NCBI GenBank assembly: GCA_964429585.1
Contig: CAYSCN010000003.1
Coordinates: 47,795 to 111,794, forward strand
Reading direction: 5' to 3'
Length of the DNA: 64,000 nt
DNA from: an uncultured bacterium
GTDB taxonomy: Bacteria; Desulfobacterota; Deferrimicrobia; J040
Shown here: positions 3,962-62,851 of the stretch, one piece after another
Numbering within the stretch: the first letter of the stretch is position 1
How the letters are laid out: the number at the start of each line of letters is the position of its first letter
Translations under genes and position numbers: made by a program
The notes under the pieces: generated by a model
What the model was told of the DNA's origin: nothing
What the model saw: only the letters and a program-made list of their open reading frames with translations
The model's database searches: none

Positions 3962-5869
3962 TCATGATCGCTTGGTGATGGGCACAGACTTGAGGAAGTC
4001 GTACCTGCAATATGGACAGAATCTCCAGATCGGATCCACCGTCTTCTGACAGGCAGGACAGGTTTCGACCAGCTTCTTTCCGCAGTGGGGACAGGCGATG
4101 AATTCTGGCCCCAGCACCGCCTCGCAATCCGGGCATATCGACCCGAAGTCTTCGTCGGTGTGTATTACCCGAAGCACTTCGCTGACCGATGTTATCCCTT
4201 TCAGCACCTTTTCCAGTCCCGCCTGAGCGATGGTTCTCATTCCTTCCGCTATGGCTGTCTGCCTTATGTTGGATTCGGTGGCGTTGTTGGCTATCAGATC
4301 TTTTATCCTCTGGGAGAAGACGAGGATTTCGTAAATGCCGGTCCTGCCCTTGTACCCCGTCCAGCCGCACTTGGAGCACCCTTTGCCCCTGTAGAACTGG
4401 AGTCCCCTGATACTCCTGGAAGGTATTCCGATCTTGAGCAGGCTTTCTTCGGATGGGGAATCCTGAACCTTGCAGTTTGGACAGATTATTCTGACGAGTC
4501 TCTGAGCTATTATGCCTATGATAGTAGACGCTATGAGATAAGAGGGTATTCCCAGATTTTTTATCCTGGATATCGTGGAGACGGCGTTGTTTGTGTGGAC
4601 CGTGCTGAGCACCAGGTGTCCCGTGAGGGAGGCCTGCATGGCTATGGTGGCTGTTTCGGCGTCTCTCATCTCACCCACTAAAATCACGTCCGGGTCCTGT
4701 CGCAATATGGATCTGAGCGCACCCGCGAACGTCAGTCCTACCTTTTCATTCACCGCTACCTGATTGATTCCCTCCAGTTCGTATTCTATCGGGTCTTCTA
4801 TAGTGGTTATGTTTTTCTCGATGGACTTTATCCTGGTGAGAGCGGCGTAGAGGGTCGTTGTCTTTCCGCTGCCCGTGGGACCGGTTACGAGGATGATTCC
4901 CTGAGGTTTGTTTATCAACGATAGAAACCTGTCGAGAGTGTTACCTTCCATACCGAGCTGTTCGACGGTGAGAAGGGCGTTTTTCGGGTCGAGAATTCGT
5001 ATGACGACTTTCTCCCCGTAATTCGTCGGGAGAGTCGATACCCTGAGGTCGAGCATTCTTCCCCCGACTCTCACCCCTATCCTCCCGTCCTGAGGTAGGC
5101 GTTTCTCGGCGATGTCCATCTTCGCCATGATCTTTATCCTGGAAATCACCGCTCCCTGCACCCACTTGGGAAGCTCGATGCTTTTTCTGAGCATTCCGTC
5201 GACTCTGTTTCTGATGACCACTTTGTCTTTGGTGGGTTCCACGTGTATGTCCGAGGCTCCCTGTTCCACCGCCTCCGATATGAGGAGGTTCACCATCCGT
5301 ATTATGGGGGCGGCCTCGCTCTTCTTCTTCAGGTCCTCGACTTCTTTGGAATCTTCCTTCACCTCCTGCAGGACTTCGACGACCTTTTCAGATGAGATGT
5401 CCTTGACGATCGAGTCGAGAGATGCTCCCAGATTGTAGTGATGGTCTATCGCCCAGATTATGTCGCTTTGCGTCGCCACGTAGGGTTTGATCGTGAACCC
5501 GGATGCGAAACGAACGTCCTCGAAGGCTTCGTAACTCAAAGGATCTGCCATCGCAACGTGCAGATCCTTGTCTTCCACGCTGATTGGGATTATGAGGTGT
5601 TTCCTCGCCACCTTTTCGGGGATGATTTCTATTGCAACCGGTTCGACGGGCGTGTTCTTGAGGTCTATGAGCTGTATTCCGAGCTGGGTGGACAGCGCCT
5701 GGGCAATTTCTTCCTCGCTGCAAATTCCCATTTCCACGAGGATGGCGCCGAGTTTTTTCTTTCTGCCCTTTTGTTCCGCGAGCGCCCTCTTCAGGTCTTC
5801 CTGGGAAATGGTCCCCGATTCGAGGAGTATCTCACCCAGTTTTTTCTTTATTTTTATCTTGGTTCCCAT
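3962..5869 (-). CDS. MshE/PilB/GspE-family secretion ATPase: N-terminal tandem MshEN (c-di-GMP-binding type) motifs, tetracysteine motif and an extra C-terminal double zinc ribbon
   Basis: 635 aa. Walker A GPTGSGKTTT, Walker B/Asp box DPDVILVGEMRD, His box LVLSTVHTN, and the family tetracysteine CPNC…CSKCG. The N-terminus has two copies of the MshEN pattern: KLGEILLESGTISQEDLKRALAEQ and KLGAILVEMGICSEEEIAQALSTQ. Extra C-terminal tail CPDCEAV…CPHCGKK…CPACQKT…CPYCRYDF. Confidence 0.85.
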   Translation of the reverse strand: MGTKIKIKKKLGEILLESGTISQEDLKRALAEQKGRKKKLGAILVEMGICSEEEIAQALSTQLGIQLIDLKNTPVEPVAIEIIPEKVARKHLIIPISVEDKDLHVAMADPLSYEAFEDVRFASGFTIKPYVATQSDIIWAIDHHYNLGASLDSIVKDISSEKVVEVLQEVKEDSKEVEDLKKKSEAAPIIRMVNLLISEAVEQGASDIHVEPTKDKVVIRNRVDGMLRKSIELPKWVQGAVISRIKIMAKMDIAEKRLPQDGRIGVRVGGRMLDLRVSTLPTNYGEKVVIRILDPKNALLTVEQLGMEGNTLDRFLSLINKPQGIILVTGPTGSGKTTTLYAALTRIKSIEKNITTIEDPIEYELEGINQVAVNEKVGLTFAGALRSILRQDPDVILVGEMRDAETATIAMQASLTGHLVLSTVHTNNAVSTISRIKNLGIPSYLIASTIIGIIAQRLVRIICPNCKVQDSPSEESLLKIGIPSRSIRGLQFYRGKGCSKCGWTGYKGRTGIYEILVFSQRIKDLIANNATESNIRQTAIAEGMRTIAQAGLEKVLKGITSVSEVLRVIHTDEDFGSICPDCEAVLGPEFIACPHCGKKLVETCPACQKTVDPIWRFCPYCRYDFLKSVPITKRS

Positions 5870-5904
5870 GGTTGAATCCAGCGTTTGACTCGAAAACAGT
5901 GTTG

Positions 5905-5933
5905 ATATTATCAGAATTTTTTTTGGATAACAA
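5905..5933 (-). promoter_or_regulatory. Candidate sigma70-type promoter for the ATPase gene (minus strand TTGTTA-17 nt-TAATAT)
   Basis: The reverse complement of 5905-5933 reads TTGTTA tccaaaaaaaattctga TAATAT. It sits about 35 nt upstream of the ATPase ATG in an AT-rich intergenic region. Identified by eye only. Confidence 0.35.
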
Positions 5934-6088
5934 TTAATTGTGAGAAAAAATATTTTTCAGGTATTTCTTGGTGTGAAACTATCGATTCTGCTGGGCGAGT
6001 TGAATCGAGAACACAGATTCCCCTTTTCCCCCGAGAAATTTGGTAGAGCTTTCAGGATGGAGCTTACGTGCCGCCATGTGTCTCTTCG

Positions 6089-6274
6089 TCAACCTGCGGC
6101 CTTGGTTTTTTTCCTCTTGTCGTCTTTGTTGCTCTTTTCCGTTCTGTTTCTGATGACAACGTCGTCGACTACTTCACCGCATATCACGCATCGCCACGCG
6201 TAAAACACTTCCAGCATATCCTGATATCTCTCGTATATCATGAGTCCGTTGCATCTCGGACACTTCATTTTCAT
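6089..6274 (-). CDS. Small zinc-ribbon protein (61 aa, CPRC…CVICG) with a Lys-rich tail
   Basis: The ORF has a good RBS on the minus strand (reverse complement of 6277-6288 = AAGGGAGGGA) before the ATG. Two CxxC pairs lie about 22 aa apart, with a basic C-terminus KDDKRKKTK. Codon usage resembles neighbouring genes. It is co-directional with, and upstream of, the ATPase. Confidence 0.55.
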   Translation of the reverse strand: MKMKCPRCNGLMIYERYQDMLEVFYAWRCVICGEVVDDVVIRNRTEKSNKDDKRKKTKAAG

Positions 6275-6462
6275 CCCTCCCTTTTCGTTTCAATATTAGA
6301 TGATACGGTTATTCTCCTGGTTTCATCGTGTTGTTTTCAAAATATTACATTATATTACCGCTCATGTCATCTCCTTTGTTACAAACGCTTTGAATGTTTC
6401 GCTTTTTCCCCGGCGAGTTTTTGGAGTATACTTTTGGGAAGTTTTACCTGGAGGGTTTTGTG

Positions 6463-7698
6463 ATGAGACATCGCGGCATGTGGGTCGTTTTCTTCGTTGT
6501 CACGTCCGTCGTTCTCGTTTTCCATTCGAGGGCTTTTGCCGGGGATCCGGGGAAGCTTTTTCAGGAGGCCAGGGAACGAATAGCCGTGAAGGATTTCGAG
6601 GGAGCTCTGTCTGTTTACGAGGAAATACTCGATTCTTATCCGGATGACCTGGATGCCCTGCTGGGTAAAGCAAGGGTTCTCTCGTGGATGGGTAGATACG
6701 AGGAGGCGAGGGCCGTTTACCGGGATGCATTGAGGGTCGACCCTGAAAACGTGGATGCCGAGCTCGGGATAGCGGACACTTTCGCCTGGCAGTGGGATTA
6801 TGACAGGGCGATTTCGATGGCGCGTAAGCTGGAAAGGAGGAACCCCAGGGACAGGAATGTGCTCATAAGGCTTGCGAGATACAACCTCTGGGCAGGGAAC
6901 AGGGAAGAGGCAATTTATTACGCGGAAAGAGTGAAAAGAGATTATCCCGATGACCAGGAAGCCGACGATATAATTAGAAAAGCCGGGAGACTATACAGAT
7001 ACAGGGCTCTCGTGGGTTACGAATTTCTGAATATAACGAACGACGTGGACGGTCACAGTCTGTATGGGTTTCTCGACGTTGTTGAGGGAAAAGGGAAGAG
7101 GTTTTTCGGTGGGGTGGAGATCATCGACAGGTTCGATGAGCAGGAGGGCAGGATATCCGGAGGGGGGTCGTTCAAGGTGAGCGACAAGCTCGAGGTGTCC
7201 GTCGAGGCCGGCATCGCGCCTGGAGCAGACGTCCTTCCCCAATTTTCCGGCTGGGTGGAGCTGGCGTCTCCAGCTCTCCCTTCGTGGGTCGTCTACGGGT
7301 CTTTTTCCACTCAGATTTATTCCGACGCAGACGTATACAATTTTTCCGTGGCAGGAGAGTATTTCCCTTATGGTTACCTTTCTCTGTTCACCAGGGTTTC
7401 CGTGTCGAGAACTGAATTCGACCTTGGGAGAAGCTCTACCGATGGAAGCATCCTTTTCAGGACGACGTATTACGCAAATGAGGACGATGAATTTCACGTT
7501 TACGTGGGCTACGGGAACGAAGCATACAAGTCGGAAACCATCGATCTTGTGGGGGACATAGAAGCGAAGATTATAGGGGCAGGGGGGACTTACTACGTAT
7601 CCCCCTCTTTGGGGTTGTCACCGGGGTTCGAGTTTCAGGACAGAAGCGGTGGCACGCGGTATTACACATTTACCCTCGATCTACTTTACCGGTGGTGA
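6463..7698 (+). CDS. Outer-membrane protein: signal peptide plus TPR repeats plus C-terminal beta-barrel (possibly YaiO-like)
   Basis: ATG 6463 follows RBS GGAGGG. Signal peptide MRHRGMWVVFFVVTSVVLVFHSRAFA. About 170 aa of TPR-like helical repeats (ALSVYEEILDSYPDD…, ARAVYRDALRVDPEN…). The C-terminal ~230 aa show alternating hydrophobic beta-strand patterns with Gly/aromatic residues and a terminal aromatic (…FTLDLLYRW), typical of OM beta-barrels. Confidence 0.7.
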   Translation: MRHRGMWVVFFVVTSVVLVFHSRAFAGDPGKLFQEARERIAVKDFEGALSVYEEILDSYPDDLDALLGKARVLSWMGRYEEARAVYRDALRVDPENVDAELGIADTFAWQWDYDRAISMARKLERRNPRDRNVLIRLARYNLWAGNREEAIYYAERVKRDYPDDQEADDIIRKAGRLYRYRALVGYEFLNITNDVDGHSLYGFLDVVEGKGKRFFGGVEIIDRFDEQEGRISGGGSFKVSDKLEVSVEAGIAPGADVLPQFSGWVELASPALPSWVVYGSFSTQIYSDADVYNFSVAGEYFPYGYLSLFTRVSVSRTEFDLGRSSTDGSILFRTTYYANEDDEFHVYVGYGNEAYKSETIDLVGDIEAKIIGAGGTYYVSPSLGLSPGFEFQDRSGGTRYYTFTLDLLYRW

Positions 7699-7753
7699 CC
7701 TTTATAAAAAAGCCCAAGAACACGTATGAGAGAAAAAATCTTGGAGGGGGACG

Positions 7754-8101
7754 GTGCGAGTTCTCGTAATTGAGGACAACGCCGAGGTCAGGGAAATACT
7801 GAAGGAGATGGTTCAGCTTCTCGGGGCCGAGGCGGTTGTAGCTGAAAACGGATTGACAGGGCTCGAGCTCGTCAGGACAACTAAATTCGATCTGGTTTTC
7901 ACTGATCTCAGGATGCCGGGACTTAAGGGGACTCAGCTAGTAGAAGCGTTGAAGAAGGCGGTTCCAGATGTTCCGCTGGTTGTCGTTTCGGGTTCACCTC
8001 AGGACCTCAATGAGGAAGAGGTGAGGGACAAGGTGTTCCGGATAGTTAGAAAGCCATTTTCGATAAGGCAGATAGGGGAAATTATCGATTCTTTCCGGTA
8101 A
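7754..8101 (+). CDS. Single-domain response regulator (CheY-like receiver)
   Basis: 115 aa, GTG start after RBS GGAGGGGG. Canonical receiver residues are present: acidic pair VLVIEDN, phospho-acceptor Asp in LVFTDLRMPG, VVVSGS and VRKPF (Lys-Pro). There is no output domain. Confidence 0.85.
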   Translation: MRVLVIEDNAEVREILKEMVQLLGAEAVVAENGLTGLELVRTTKFDLVFTDLRMPGLKGTQLVEALKKAVPDVPLVVVSGSPQDLNEEEVRDKVFRIVRKPFSIRQIGEIIDSFR

Positions 8102-8127
8102 AGCGCGAGAGGAGAGTGGCGGTTCGC

Positions 8128-9186
8128 CTATCTCCAGCACTTGTTGCAGTATTTACAATTGACCTCAGTGCATATCGAAACGTTCTTGGCCGCGTACGCC
8201 TTTCCGGAATTGGCGTGAGACCTTTTCACGCATCCGTGGGGAAGATGAACGGATGGGATCAAGACGAGAAGCCCTATGAGTGCGAGCGAAGACGCGAGTG
8301 TCAGGATCTGTCCTTTGAAAGAGGCAGCTTTTTTTTCAGAGCTCGGGTTCCTGTCTTCTTCCAGGAGGGCCCGAACTCTTCTGCTTACTTCTTTGCTGGA
8401 AAAGTACGCGGATTGAGGAGCTTCTCCGCTGCTGTTCAGGCGGGCTGTCTTTACGATGGATTCTGCCAGAACCAGGGGATCGGCCCCCATTTTGACCGCG
8501 TACTGGTCGGCGGCCAGTTCCGTCATCAGCCTGAATCGTTCGAAGAGTTCATTTCTTCTGGGGATGAAGATCAGAGGTCTCAGTATGCTCCAGAGAAACA
8601 GTTTCTTGAGAGGGTGTCTGTATTTGACGTGTCCCGCTTCGTGGAGGATGACTGTCTCGAGTTCCTCTTCTGATAGAGAACTGGCAAGAGCTTCCGATAC
8701 GTAAATTTTCCCTTCTATAAGCCCGGTGGAGAATGCGAAGACTTTGTTTGAGGGAACCAGAATGACGGAGTGTCCCGAGATCCTTTTTTCCTGCCCCCTT
8801 GCCACGATCACGGGGGTTTCCTTCTCTACTTTGCAGATCGAATGCACACCTGAGAAAAAGTTCTTCAAGAATCCGACTATTCCATATGGAATCAGGAAGA
8901 GAATGAACAGGCTTATGGCAGCTTTGGTGATGTTTCCCAGAGAGGAAATTAGCGTCTGCGCCGCGTGGCAAAGGTGGATAGCGATCTTGGAAGACAGTAT
9001 CGCCGCGACTATCCCGTCCCACCTGGAATAGAGAATAGATGCCAGAAAAGAAAATGAGAGAGCCAGCGTAAGGACAGTTGTGAGGAAGAGTTTTCGACTC
9101 TCTCTCTCGTAGTCAGTCTTCCGATTTCCCCTTCTTTTGCTCAATGAGTTTCTCCAGCAGCTCCAGATCTTCCGGATCCTCAGCAA
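8128..9186 (-). CDS. M56-family (BlaR1/MecR1-like) membrane zinc metallopeptidase lacking a penicillin-binding sensor domain, with a Cys/His-rich C-terminal tail
   Basis: HEXXH zinc motif ILHEAGHVKYRH, flanking TM helices and the downstream ELAADQYAV region match the M56 protease domain. After a final TM helix (ILTLASSLALIGLLVLIPSV) the protein ends in HLPHGCVKRSHANSGKAYAAKNVSICTEVNCKYCNKCWR. The true start is uncertain because the longest ORF overlaps the upstream repressor gene by about 70 nt. Confidence 0.8.
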   Translation of the reverse strand: MLRIRKIWSCWRNSLSKRRGNRKTDYERESRKLFLTTVLTLALSFSFLASILYSRWDGIVAAILSSKIAIHLCHAAQTLISSLGNITKAAISLFILFLIPYGIVGFLKNFFSGVHSICKVEKETPVIVARGQEKRISGHSVILVPSNKVFAFSTGLIEGKIYVSEALASSLSEEELETVILHEAGHVKYRHPLKKLFLWSILRPLIFIPRRNELFERFRLMTELAADQYAVKMGADPLVLAESIVKTARLNSSGEAPQSAYFSSKEVSRRVRALLEEDRNPSSEKKAASFKGQILTLASSLALIGLLVLIPSVHLPHGCVKRSHANSGKAYAAKNVSICTEVNCKYCNKCWR

Positions 9187-9547
9187 CCTTTTCGATGAAG
9201 GCGGCTATCGCTGTTTTACCGTCCAGTTCTAGAAGTCCCTCTACCACTTTCTGCGACACGACGCGTTTGTACTCTTCTTCGGTCAGAGTGGGAGCATACC
9301 TGTAAATTTTACCCTCTTTTTCTTTAGTAAGAAGATTTTTTTCCACGAGTCGATTCATGACCGTGATGACAGTGGTGTAGGCGATCTCCTTTTCCCTCGA
9401 GAGCTCCTCGTGAACTCTCTTGACGGTTGCAGAGCCCATCCTCCACAGGACATCCATGATTTCCTGTTCCAGGTCTCCGAAAGTTTGCCCGATTCCCTTT
9501 CTACCAGGACGAAAGATGAATTTGATTTTTTCTCTCAATGATGGCAT
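9113..9547 (-). CDS. BlaI/MecI/CopY-family (penicillinase-repressor type) winged-helix transcriptional repressor
   Basis: The protein starts MPSLREK… at ATG 9547 after RBS GGAGG. Its N-terminal region (EQEIMDVLWRMGSATVKRVHEEL…YTTVITVMNRLVEKNLL) matches the Penicillinase_R DNA-binding fold. It has a C-terminal dimerisation helix and no CopY-type CxC…CxC metal site. It lies immediately upstream of the M56 peptidase gene. Confidence 0.85.
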   Translation of the reverse strand: MPSLREKIKFIFRPGRKGIGQTFGDLEQEIMDVLWRMGSATVKRVHEELSREKEIAYTTVITVMNRLVEKNLLTKEKEGKIYRYAPTLTEEEYKRVVSQKVVEGLLELDGKTAIAAFIEKVAEDPEDLELLEKLIEQKKGKSED

Positions 9548-9645
9548 GGTCAATTTTCCTCCTTGAGTTTGATTCATATTATATTTTACCTGTCGTAGAA
9601 ACACAACTTAAAATCAGGAGTTTTCGGCTTGGGGCACAATTAACT

Positions 9646-9706: not shown

Positions 9707-10255
9707 ATGGAAGGAAAGAAGATAGCTGGTGTGTTTACGGTTTTTGTGGTGGCGCTTGCAATGGTATTTTCCTTTGGAATCTCCAATGCCATGATGGGAG
9801 GCCATTCTGGAAAGGGTATGATGGGTTCTGGAGGAAGCGGCAACCAGGGGATGATGGGAAAAAGCGGCGGCAAGATGATGGGAAAAAGTGGTAAGGGTCA
9901 CGGCGGAATGATGGGCGGCATGAAGGTCTTCGAGAGGGAAGCTTTCGGGATGAAGCTCGAAGGAAACATAGTGGATGTGAGAGCGCAGATGAAGAAACTG
10001 GGCAGGAACGCTCCAAGTGGAATAACTCACCACATCATGATCACTCCTTCCAGGCCATTCCCCAAGGGGACGAAGGCGACTCTCATCGTGAAGTCCCCAA
10101 GTGGCGAGAAGAAAGAGGTGGGACTCATGGCAATGGGCAATCACATGGGAGCCGATCTCTACCTCCCGGACCCGGGGAAATACGTATTCGATTGTCAGAT
10201 AACCTCGGGCGGTGAAAGCACGGAGTTTCAGTTCAGCTACCAGGTCGAGAAGTAA
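9707..10255 (+). CDS. Secreted Met/Gly-rich repeat protein with a C-terminal beta-rich His/Met-containing domain (putative periplasmic metal-binding, possibly copper)
   Basis: RBS AAGGAGGA. Signal peptide MEGKKIAGVFTVFVVALAMVFSFGISNA. Five MMG repeats follow (MMGGHSGKG MMGSGGSGNQG MMGKSGGK MMGKSGKGHGG MMGGM). Then a ~100-aa domain with HHIM and MAMGNHMG motifs. It is divergent from the repressor/M56 operon. Confidence 0.6.
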   Translation: MEGKKIAGVFTVFVVALAMVFSFGISNAMMGGHSGKGMMGSGGSGNQGMMGKSGGKMMGKSGKGHGGMMGGMKVFEREAFGMKLEGNIVDVRAQMKKLGRNAPSGITHHIMITPSRPFPKGTKATLIVKSPSGEKKEVGLMAMGNHMGADLYLPDPGKYVFDCQITSGGESTEFQFSYQVEK

Positions 10256-61876: not shown

Positions 61877-62851
61877 ATGATCGACAGGACTTATCATCTT
61901 CTTTCCGATCTCTTTCACAGAGGAGAGAAAGGCCAGAACGAAGAGGAGCTGGTCAATTTCCTCGTTTATCAGCTCTACGACCTGTATGGTCTGAAGAGCT
62001 CTGCGGTGCTTTTTTTCATCGAGTCCGGGCAGTTCGAGATATTCGCTCACAGGGGGCTCTCAAGGGGGTTCATCAAACAGCTGTACTCCCTGCCCGAGAA
62101 GAAGATAGTGATGGAAGCGAAAGAGAGGGAAGTTTACGTCGACAGTAACGATCCGCGGTGGAATCTCCCCGATTACTGCTTCGAACACAGGACGCCTTTC
62201 AGGCTCGCGGTTCCTCTTAAATACTGTGGCGAGACGGTGGGGGTCCTTTTCATGGACTGGGAAGAGGGGCATGTATATTCGGAGCAGATGAGAGAGGATG
62301 TGAGGCTCGTAGCCGGGGTTGTGGCTGCTTACCTTAAGGTCAAGAGCCTGAAAAGCCGGATATCCATGGTCCCGGATATAGACCCTTTGACGGGACTTTA
62401 CAGCTTCAAGTACTTTCACGAGGCCCTTTTCAGGGAGATAACCAGGGCGGAAGAGCTCGGGAGGAAGATGTCTCTTTTCTTCGCGGAGATAAGGAACATA
62501 AGAGATATGAACAGGGTCTACGGCCACGTGGCGGGCGACAAGAACATAGTGCTTCTGGGAGAGCGGGTGAAGAAGCATTTCAGGAGGGTGGACGTGGTTT
62601 CGAGGACCGGTGACAATTTCTACGTGGTGATTCCGGAGCTGGGGCACGAGGGTGCGAGGGAAGTGGTCGAGAGTTTGCTCAGGGATCTGGATGAATCTCC
62701 CATCGGCGAGGGAGAGATACACCTTAACCTGGCTTCCGGGCTGGTCACCTATCCTGATCACGGGACGAATGAGAGAGATTTGATCACACTGGTGGAGAGC
62801 CTTGTTCACGAGTCGCGCAGGAAAGGAGGGAACGCTCTGTCGACTCCGTGA
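61877..62851 (+). CDS. GAF-like sensor plus degenerate GGDEF-domain protein (likely non-catalytic)
   Basis: C-terminal domain aligns with diguanylate cyclases (DPLTGLYSFKYF…YGHVAGDKNIV…). The GG(D/E)EF signature position reads RTGDNFY, and the upstream metal-binding DxD is replaced (LFFAEIRNI). An RxxD (RRVD) lies just upstream. The N-terminal ~150 aa look GAF-like. Confidence 0.7.
   Translation: MIDRTYHLLSDLFHRGEKGQNEEELVNFLVYQLYDLYGLKSSAVLFFIESGQFEIFAHRGLSRGFIKQLYSLPEKKIVMEAKEREVYVDSNDPRWNLPDYCFEHRTPFRLAVPLKYCGETVGVLFMDWEEGHVYSEQMREDVRLVAGVVAAYLKVKSLKSRISMVPDIDPLTGLYSFKYFHEALFREITRAEELGRKMSLFFAEIRNIRDMNRVYGHVAGDKNIVLLGERVKKHFRRVDVVSRTGDNFYVVIPELGHEGAREVVESLLRDLDESPIGEGEIHLNLASGLVTYPDHGTNERDLITLVESLVHESRRKGGNALSTP

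Follow-up and report, generated by a model that had tools for sequence, protein, structure and literature searches.

What powers type IV pili and type II secretion systems (T2SS) are ATPases of the PilB type; how signals turn these motors on is an active question. The MshE protein of Vibrio cholerae, encoded in the msh pilus operon, has the architecture MshEN-T2SSE and ends after its ATPase domain; the residues through which it contacts c-di-GMP (cyclic dimeric guanosine monophosphate) and the motif that defines the site were described by Wang et al. 2016 (PMC5013675), whose contact list and motif definition are used throughout. Myxococcus xanthus PilB and Thermus PilF bind c-di-GMP as well, through MshEN or GSPII domains. 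Here we describe a gene of this class at positions 3962..5869 (minus strand) of a 64,000-nucleotide stretch of contig CAYSCN010000003.1 (assembly GCA_964429585.1), from an uncultured bacterium of the Deferrimicrobia; this whole stretch is called the window below. Its product likewise has the MshEN-T2SSE order, and its 53-residue tandem c-di-GMP motif aligns with that of MshE without a gap, but the window protein adds a C-terminal double zinc ribbon (DZR) with eight cysteines (Cys8) and is encoded by an orphan gene. By sequence and fold it comes closest to the PilB proteins of Geobacter metallireducens, G. sulfurreducens and M. xanthus and to T. thermophilus PilF. These proteins end at about residue 572 of the query, and most of the ribbon-less relatives adjoin genes for T2SSF, the platform protein, whereas the window protein belongs to a separate clade.

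Regulatory modules are appended to the C-terminus of other PilB-family motors too. Desulfotalea DP2226 joins MshEN-T2SSE to a domain that binds cyclic nucleoside monophosphates (cNMP; PMC5013675 Supplementary Table 4), and in Omnitrophota proteins MshEN-T2SSE is followed by PilZ. Compared with the PilZ and cNMP fusions, the ribbon of the window protein is a module without a known ligand, and the Omnitrophota proteins stand mostly beside pilus or T2SS-type genes, which the DZR clade does not. Our set of loci includes Candidatus Omnitrophota PilB homologues of ~715 aa that end in PilZ (in L059 9992-12130, PF07238 scores 43.8 bits), a further c-di-GMP-related module fused to the rear of the motor; similar Omnitrophota PilB-PilZ loci are L061, L062, L066, L070-L072, L075 and L078.

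Domain layout and class of the ATPase

The coding sequence is an ATG-to-stop open reading frame (ORF) of 635 codons plus the stop, as given by the ORF list and its translation, and identical copies of the 635-aa protein are present on two other independent public assemblies or contigs. Most genes of the window lie on the plus strand and this one is among the few on the minus strand, a detail absent from the sequence-only reading, an earlier note made from the letters of the window. Four units follow one another in the protein, all encoded on the minus strand. Residues 10-62 (5684..5842) form the 53-residue c-di-GMP module, a predicted MshEN_N four-helix bundle delimited by NF053729, by the alignment with 5HTL and by the AlphaFold2 (AF2) model. 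The MshEN_C or GSPII-fold subdomain, residues 63-148 (5426..5683; PF05157, 77 bits), matches the structures of the N-terminal domains of PilF and PilB. The bilobed ATPase core (T2SSE), made up of N2D and the C-terminal domain (CTD), spans residues 184-567 (4169..5320) and is defined by PF00437 (474.6 bits), by its motifs and by Foldseek. The double zinc ribbon occupies residues 579-621 (4007..4135), where PF12773 reaches 40.1 bits (gathering cut-off 27.3).

The core carries the Walker A motif GPTGSGKT at residue 330, the Asp box EDPIE at 358, the Walker B motif DPDVILVGEMRD, which includes the catalytic Glu, at 392 and the His box TGHLVLSTVH at 416, together with a CTD tetracysteine (C463/C466/C498/C501) that is invariant in 120/120 closest homologues. 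Conservation is strict in the motifs for catalysis and in those of the hexamer core, as it is in motors that work, and the ATPase is predicted to be catalytically competent and to form hexamers. With all motifs in place and the PF00437 score given above, we class the gene product, as the sequence-only reading had done, with the PilB/GspE/MshE ATPases of the T2SSE secretion-ATPase superfamily. Within this class the equivalog models give close results: TIGR02538 (PilB) scores 647.7 bits, just under its cut-off of 675.65, and TIGR02533 (GspE) scores 628.2 bits, a marginal miss against 630.25. Among solved structures the best sequence matches are Thermus PilF and Geobacter/Myxococcus PilB, over the full length and at 48-49% identity, with bit scores of 574 for PilF and 528 for PilB against 434 for GspE. 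The AF2 model of the whole protein, built on an alignment of 67 sequences, has a mean predicted local distance difference test (pLDDT) value of 85.9. In Foldseek its core fits PilF 5oiu and PilB 5tsg with a target-normalised template modelling score (TM-score) of 0.95 and a root-mean-square deviation of 1.7 Å over 381 residues; the target-normalised TM-score is 0.58 for full-length GspE and ~0.83 for core-only EpsE chains.

The N-terminal c-di-GMP site

Two 24-residue MshEN motifs, residues 10-33 and 39-62, are separated by a spacer of exactly 5 residues (34-38), and the NCBIfam model of the c-di-GMP motif domain, NF053729, scores 68.1 bits over residues 10-62 (cut-off 38). The N-domain of V. 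cholerae MshE (5HTL) aligns gap-free to query residues 6-119 with an offset of +1. In this alignment R9, L10, G11, G18, L25, L29 and Q32 of MshE correspond to K10, L11, G12, G19, L26, L30 and Q33 of the query, and R38, L39, G40, G47, L54, L58 and Q61 to K39, L40, G41, G48, I55, L59 and Q62. All 14 c-di-GMP-contacting positions of MshE are kept, the only changes being Arg9 to Lys10, Arg38 to Lys39 and Leu54 to Ile55, and the relaxed MshEN pattern of the authors permits Lys for Arg (PMC5013675). In the AF2 model residues 10-62 form four helices with pLDDT values of 90-94. The tandem motifs named in the sequence-only reading could have failed to align with the contacting residues of MshE; they agree with them residue for residue. 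We assign the window protein to the c-di-GMP type, with an intact predicted MshEN c-di-GMP site.

The zinc-ribbon tail

Solved PilB chains stop at query residue ~572, which leaves residues 573-635 (63 aa) as an extra tail. Its CxxC pairs (579/582, 593/596, 604/607 and 618/621) follow the pattern C-x2-C-x10-C-x2-C-x7-C-x2-C-x7-W-x2-C-P-x-C. C579, C582, C593, C596, C604, C607, C618 and C621, as well as W615 and P619, are invariant in the 120/120 closest homologues (62-100% identity, 620-665 aa), and every one of these has PF05157, PF00437 and PF12773 together. Since the tail is conserved in all 120 and the identical protein occurs on two assemblies, a frameshift or fusion artefact is ruled out, and the double zinc ribbon reported from the sequence alone proves to be real, in frame and present in every close relative.

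Across 33 tails at 25-73% identity Cys8, Trp and Pro are kept and the spacing of the four CxxC pairs is free of indels, while nearly all other residues are variable. A fixed spacing with a variable remainder is typical of a scaffold that metal stabilises, not of a surface conserved for binding a ligand, and the 33 aligned tails showed no basic surface that is conserved. The ribbon is predicted to form two Cys4 zinc sites, and it is most likely a zinc-stabilised structural or docking module. In the AF2 model it has the appearance of a knob that folds on its own and is flexibly tethered. A Foldseek search of the tail model against the PDB gave nothing significant (best E-value 0.09), and a faint likeness to RanBP2/NZF-type ribbons was not used.

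The clade of ribbon-bearing ATPases

An exhaustive phmmer search over 1.84 billion cluster representatives returned 82,130 relatives, of which the nearest 150 (50%-identity representatives) were examined. Four CxxC pairs are found in 60 of the 150. Of the 61 DZR sequences (the 60 representatives plus the query), 58 are placed together in a single clade of 77 leaves when the ATPase core is used for a neighbour-joining tree, and this clade is distinct from ordinary PilBs; in a second subgroup, at 48-53% identity, the tail is mostly present. Clade members come from metagenome-assembled genomes labelled Deltaproteobacteria/Deferrimicrobiaceae (MBNT15), Thermodesulfobacteriota, Acidobacteriota, Eisenbacteria, Nitrospirota and Fervidibacterota, none of them cultured. 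The architecture, which the sequence-only reading took to be unusual, is therefore not rare, and by sequence comparison the DZR clade is a large, multi-phylum, previously undescribed subfamily from uncultured bacteria. MshEN-T2SSE-DZR was already visible in precomputed Pfam annotations, and the homologues are named inconsistently PilB, GspE or TadA. A zinc-ribbon form is not listed in the 2016 survey of MshEN architectures (PMC5013675), and our literature search found no description of a zinc ribbon joined in this way to MshEN or PilB.

Roughly one in two DZR representatives extends past the ribbon. Pfam finds a receiver domain after the ribbon in P0251, P0267, P0282, P0284, P0363 and P0366, and GAF plus HD_5 (HD-GYP-type) in P0306 from the Fervidibacterota; N-terminal MshEN is present in multiple copies, four or two, in P0242 and P0249. 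The same clade holds members with a single ribbon and a receiver-like tail, or with such a tail and no ribbon, as judged by eye and not by Pfam. Of the 27 members that end with the ribbon, 19 retain at least 12 of the 14 c-di-GMP positions, against only 8 of the 33 extended ones (Fisher P = 6e-4). These positions being mostly degenerate in the extended members, c-di-GMP and phosphorylation appear to be alternative inputs, which suggests that the regulatory input is interchangeable in the DZR clade. The presence in sister subfamilies of a receiver or GAF-HD-GYP after the ribbon points to a structural or regulatory joint, and suggests that the ribbon connects the motor to signalling modules.

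Two described systems can be set beside these fusions. The single-domain response regulator EmvR of Xanthomonas oryzae binds PilB and represses its ATPase; it is a receiver acting on PilB and in this resembles the receivers fused after the ribbon in DZR relatives, but EmvR works in trans, its target is a canonical PilB, and no ribbon is involved. In archaeal REC-TackOD1, from thaumarchaeal type IV pilus loci, a Cys-rich DZR-like domain is joined to a receiver (PMC5847659). Likened here by its description, REC-TackOD1 differs from the window protein in its domain order, its three additional cysteines, its archaeal origin and the absence of an ATPase fusion.

Two observations on individual members may be added. 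P0306/P0391 (locus L087 10001-12988) is the MshEN-T2SSE-DZR-GAF-HD_5 protein of Fervidibacterota, and a GAF-GGDEF gene lies 5 kb off. The ribbon-receiver members P0282, P0337, P0366 and P0284 (locus L086 10001-14587) continue for another 400-900 residues with no Pfam match.

Gene neighbourhoods

In the 64-kb window neither the annotated neighbours nor Pfam on ~55 further ORFs nor six-frame profiles revealed a gene for T2SSF, a pilin, a secretin or a prepilin peptidase, and a scan of the window for the prepilin motif gave a sole match, inside a pseudouridine synthase. The rest of the window is housekeeping: the opp transporter, SecA, ArgJ, S2, EF-Ts, pyrH, frr and uppS, and further ilv and leu genes, lpt genes, rpoN, PTS, metK, ahcY and rho. 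Two ORFs at the left edge (144-1972) were called oligopeptide permeases by eye only.

For the related loci, profiles were built from the neighbours of ordinary relatives (Pfam-confirmed T2SSF, T2SSG, T2SSJ, T2SSK and N_methyl) and run on six frames per locus. The T2SSF profile matched in 0/30 DZR-type loci versus 44/56 other loci, and the T2SSG-type pilin profile in 0/30 versus 35/56. PilT was matched in all of the other loci (56/56); in the DZR loci there is one listed match each, to a long ORF taken as the ATPase itself, and for the window the coordinates confirm this. An earlier count based on clustering had given 0/25 DZR loci versus 39/53 others (Fisher P = 2e-10). The annotated contexts are consistent with orphan status, and one member with a receiver after the ribbon and one with GAF-HD-GYP there are orphan too. 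What the sequence-only reading had stated for this one gene is a trait of the whole DZR family.

The two main subgroups have different surroundings. In subgroup A (MBNT15-like) the gene adjoins a small ORF, an M23 peptidase, SecA, ArgJ and S2; in subgroup B it lies between RNase J/DUF362 and cytochrome c7/LuxR/LuxI/RadC, including on a complete 2.75-Mb chromosome. Around the window gene no c-di-GMP riboswitch or other RNA family was found at E <= 1. There is no sigma-54 -24/-12 promoter site in 5870-6400, the window-wide count of such sites being that expected by chance, and sigma-70-like matches upstream are not above shuffle expectation. Membership in an anti-phage defence system was considered and rejected, the search having given only a P-loop noise match.

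Other features of the window

Directly upstream of the ATPase gene, at 6089..6274 on the minus strand, lies an ORF of 61 aa with a good ribosome-binding site, which encodes a zinc-ribbon protein (CPRC...CVIC) with a basic tail. A homologue (50-67% identical) stands beside the DZR-type ATPase in every close MBNT15-like locus examined (L003-L012, L014, L015); the ORF is co-directional with the ATPase gene in the window and divergent in the relatives. The family comprises only 73 clusters, all at an identity of at least 64%, and has no Pfam or NCBIfam model. It is possible that this protein is a lineage-specific companion of the ATPase, its membership being uncertain, and inherited gene order is indistinguishable here from functional linkage. 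As a general partner the ORF was rejected, since it occurs in a single lineage only and the second DZR subgroup lacks it.

Compared with close relatives, the window has ~4 kb extra (6394-9604) between the ATPase gene and the M23-peptidase and SecA genes. This segment encodes a TPR protein with a YaiO-type outer-membrane beta-barrel (6394-7698, plus strand), which is similar to porins of polysaccharide export (PgaA or NfrA, for example), a single-domain response regulator of 115 aa (7754-8101, plus strand), two genes from the ATPase, and a BlaR1/BlaI-like sensor-repressor pair (8128-9604, minus strand). The TPR-YaiO and receiver genes are absent from close relatives and so look like an insertion. 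Over the aligned stretches the free receiver is 23-37% identical to the receivers fused to DZR-type ATPases, which are ~37% identical among themselves; the idea that it is a split-off fused receiver finds no support, as it is no closer to the fused ones than those are to each other.

Two further genes deserve mention. The 182-aa product of 9707-10255 (plus strand) has a hydrophobic start and a region very rich in Gly, Met and Lys (MMGGHSGKGMMGSGGSGNQGMMGK...) and no Pfam or NCBIfam match; its composition hints at a possible metal-binding role in the periplasm. At 61877-62851 (plus strand) a GAF-GGDEF protein is encoded that has RTGDNF, read by eye, where the GGDEF active-site signature is expected. 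With this replacement the protein may be an inactive cyclase or a receptor and not a source of c-di-GMP.

Discussion

Taken as one statement, the reading towards which we lean slightly is that the DZR-clade protein is a c-di-GMP-gated second motor for a machine encoded elsewhere, with the ribbon as its docking or transmission element. Our confidence is much higher for the descriptive part of this statement and low for the role of the ribbon. In such a scheme c-di-GMP would bind to residues 10-62, and binding would stabilise or activate the N-terminal domain, by analogy with MshE and PilB. The ATPase ring would drive a type IV pilus or a T2SS-like platform whose genes lie elsewhere; it would probably do so as a second motor, specific to the signal, in addition to the ordinary PilB of the lineage. 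The ribbon would bind two further zinc ions and form a rigid, flexibly tethered knob, serving regulators for docking or transmission and not binding nucleic acid; this is the weakest step.

The idea of a second motor comes from a comparison within the related family Deferrimicrobiaceae. The gene list of one genome of this family shows PilT with a separate PilB adjoining it, as well as PilMNPQ, and the DZR-type genes of the family bear in the NCBI Prokaryotic Genome Annotation Pipeline (PGAP) only the name 'ATPase, T2SS/T4P/T4SS family' and stand beside the M23 peptidase and SecA, not PilT. With a separate PilB on one side and a different naming and context on the other, it is simplest to suppose that the lineage possesses an ordinary PilB, to which the DZR gene adds a further motor.

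Several points weigh against this picture. The paralogue status is pieced together from the published gene list of a related genome and from differences in naming and context. No neighbour that would hint at a partner is shared across the clade, the housekeeping contexts of the two main subgroups being unrelated. The extent of the clade depends on a DZR call made with a CxxC regular expression (four pairs within 70 residues past the ATPase domain) and on a neighbour-joining tree of the ATPase core that carries no support values, and the c-di-GMP positions in the clade were scored with simple local alignments. The structure of the tail is modelled with moderate confidence only: AF2 gives a pLDDT of ~57 for the linker (571-580) and of 66-76 for the ribbon, which consists of short beta-hairpins, and the isolated 70-aa tail reaches a mean pLDDT of 67, in modelling that was metal-free.

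The simplest alternative is that the protein is the plain type IVa PilB of the organism, with the other pil genes scattered and the ribbon a decoration of the lineage without a separate role. Its best solved relatives over the full length are indeed PilF and PilB, its score lies just under the cut-off of the PilB equivalog, and a related lineage is reported to have type IV pili and no flagella. We nevertheless consider this unlikely. None of the 30 DZR loci has PilT or T2SSF neighbours, the PGAP name is not PilB, in the core tree the DZR clade stands away from ordinary PilBs, and the invariance of Cys8, Trp and Pro at 25-73% identity speaks against a neutral decoration.

It could also be asked whether the protein is mainly a signalling ATPase that serves no filament, a c-di-GMP effector that would control, through its nucleotide state, another process, for example exopolysaccharide export. 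A clade that is always orphan and rich in signalling fusions (receivers, GAF-HD-GYP, multiple MshEN) would suit such a role, and a signalling function of PilB in exopolysaccharide regulation has a precedent in M. xanthus (PMC5544727). The nearness of the window gene to a barrel of the polysaccharide-export-porin type and to a single-domain receiver also fits; these neighbours, however, look inserted and are absent from close relatives, and all catalytic and hexamer-core motifs are strictly kept, as expected of working motors, which makes a purely signalling function rather improbable.

A GspE for a T2SS encoded elsewhere would agree with the narrow miss of the GspE equivalog, with the name that NCBI gives to some homologues and with the fact that some T2SS ATPases bind c-di-GMP via MshEN too (PMC5013675). 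This reading is very improbable, as no gsp gene (T2SSF, pseudopilin) is found in any of the 30 DZR loci, both the sequence score and the full-length Foldseek match are poorer than for PilF and PilB, and the gene list of Ca. Deferrimicrobium SHF-111, a selective one, has no T2SS entries.

Zinc ribbons are often nucleic-acid binders, and Thermus PilF is needed for transformation. That the ribbon binds nucleic acid and couples the motor, for instance, to DNA uptake is nonetheless scarcely credible, even with the example of PriA, where an insert with eight similarly placed cysteines positions the DNA-unwinding wedge (PMC5847659): nothing points to nucleic-acid binding, one of the two roles that the sequence-only reading proposed for the zinc module, given that tail residues other than Cys, Trp and Pro vary freely and form no conserved basic patch, that no competence gene is among the neighbours in the window, that the tail fold search gave nothing significant, and that relatives carry receiver domains after the ribbon and not DNA-related domains.

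The preferred reading, a c-di-GMP-gated second motor, can be widened to the clade as a whole. The DZR proteins would then be a separate functional class, free-standing signal-gated motors without a dedicated platform gene, whose input is either c-di-GMP (through MshEN) or phosphorylation (through a receiver). The ribbon would pass the C-terminal signal to the ring, and these motors would compete with or replace PilB on a shared machine, or drive a machine not yet recognised. We regard this wider proposal as doubtful.

For annotation, DZR-type genes, which are now called PilB, GspE or TadA at random, could become a family of their own. The finding concerns researchers of pilus motors and of c-di-GMP, and does not amount to a new kind of system. 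If the traits of the clade, with its apparent swapping of c-di-GMP and two-component input, are confirmed, it would offer a natural system in which to follow how signals enter at the ring's C-terminal face, a subject that has received hardly any study in these motors, and would show that one pilus machine can be served by several differently gated motors.

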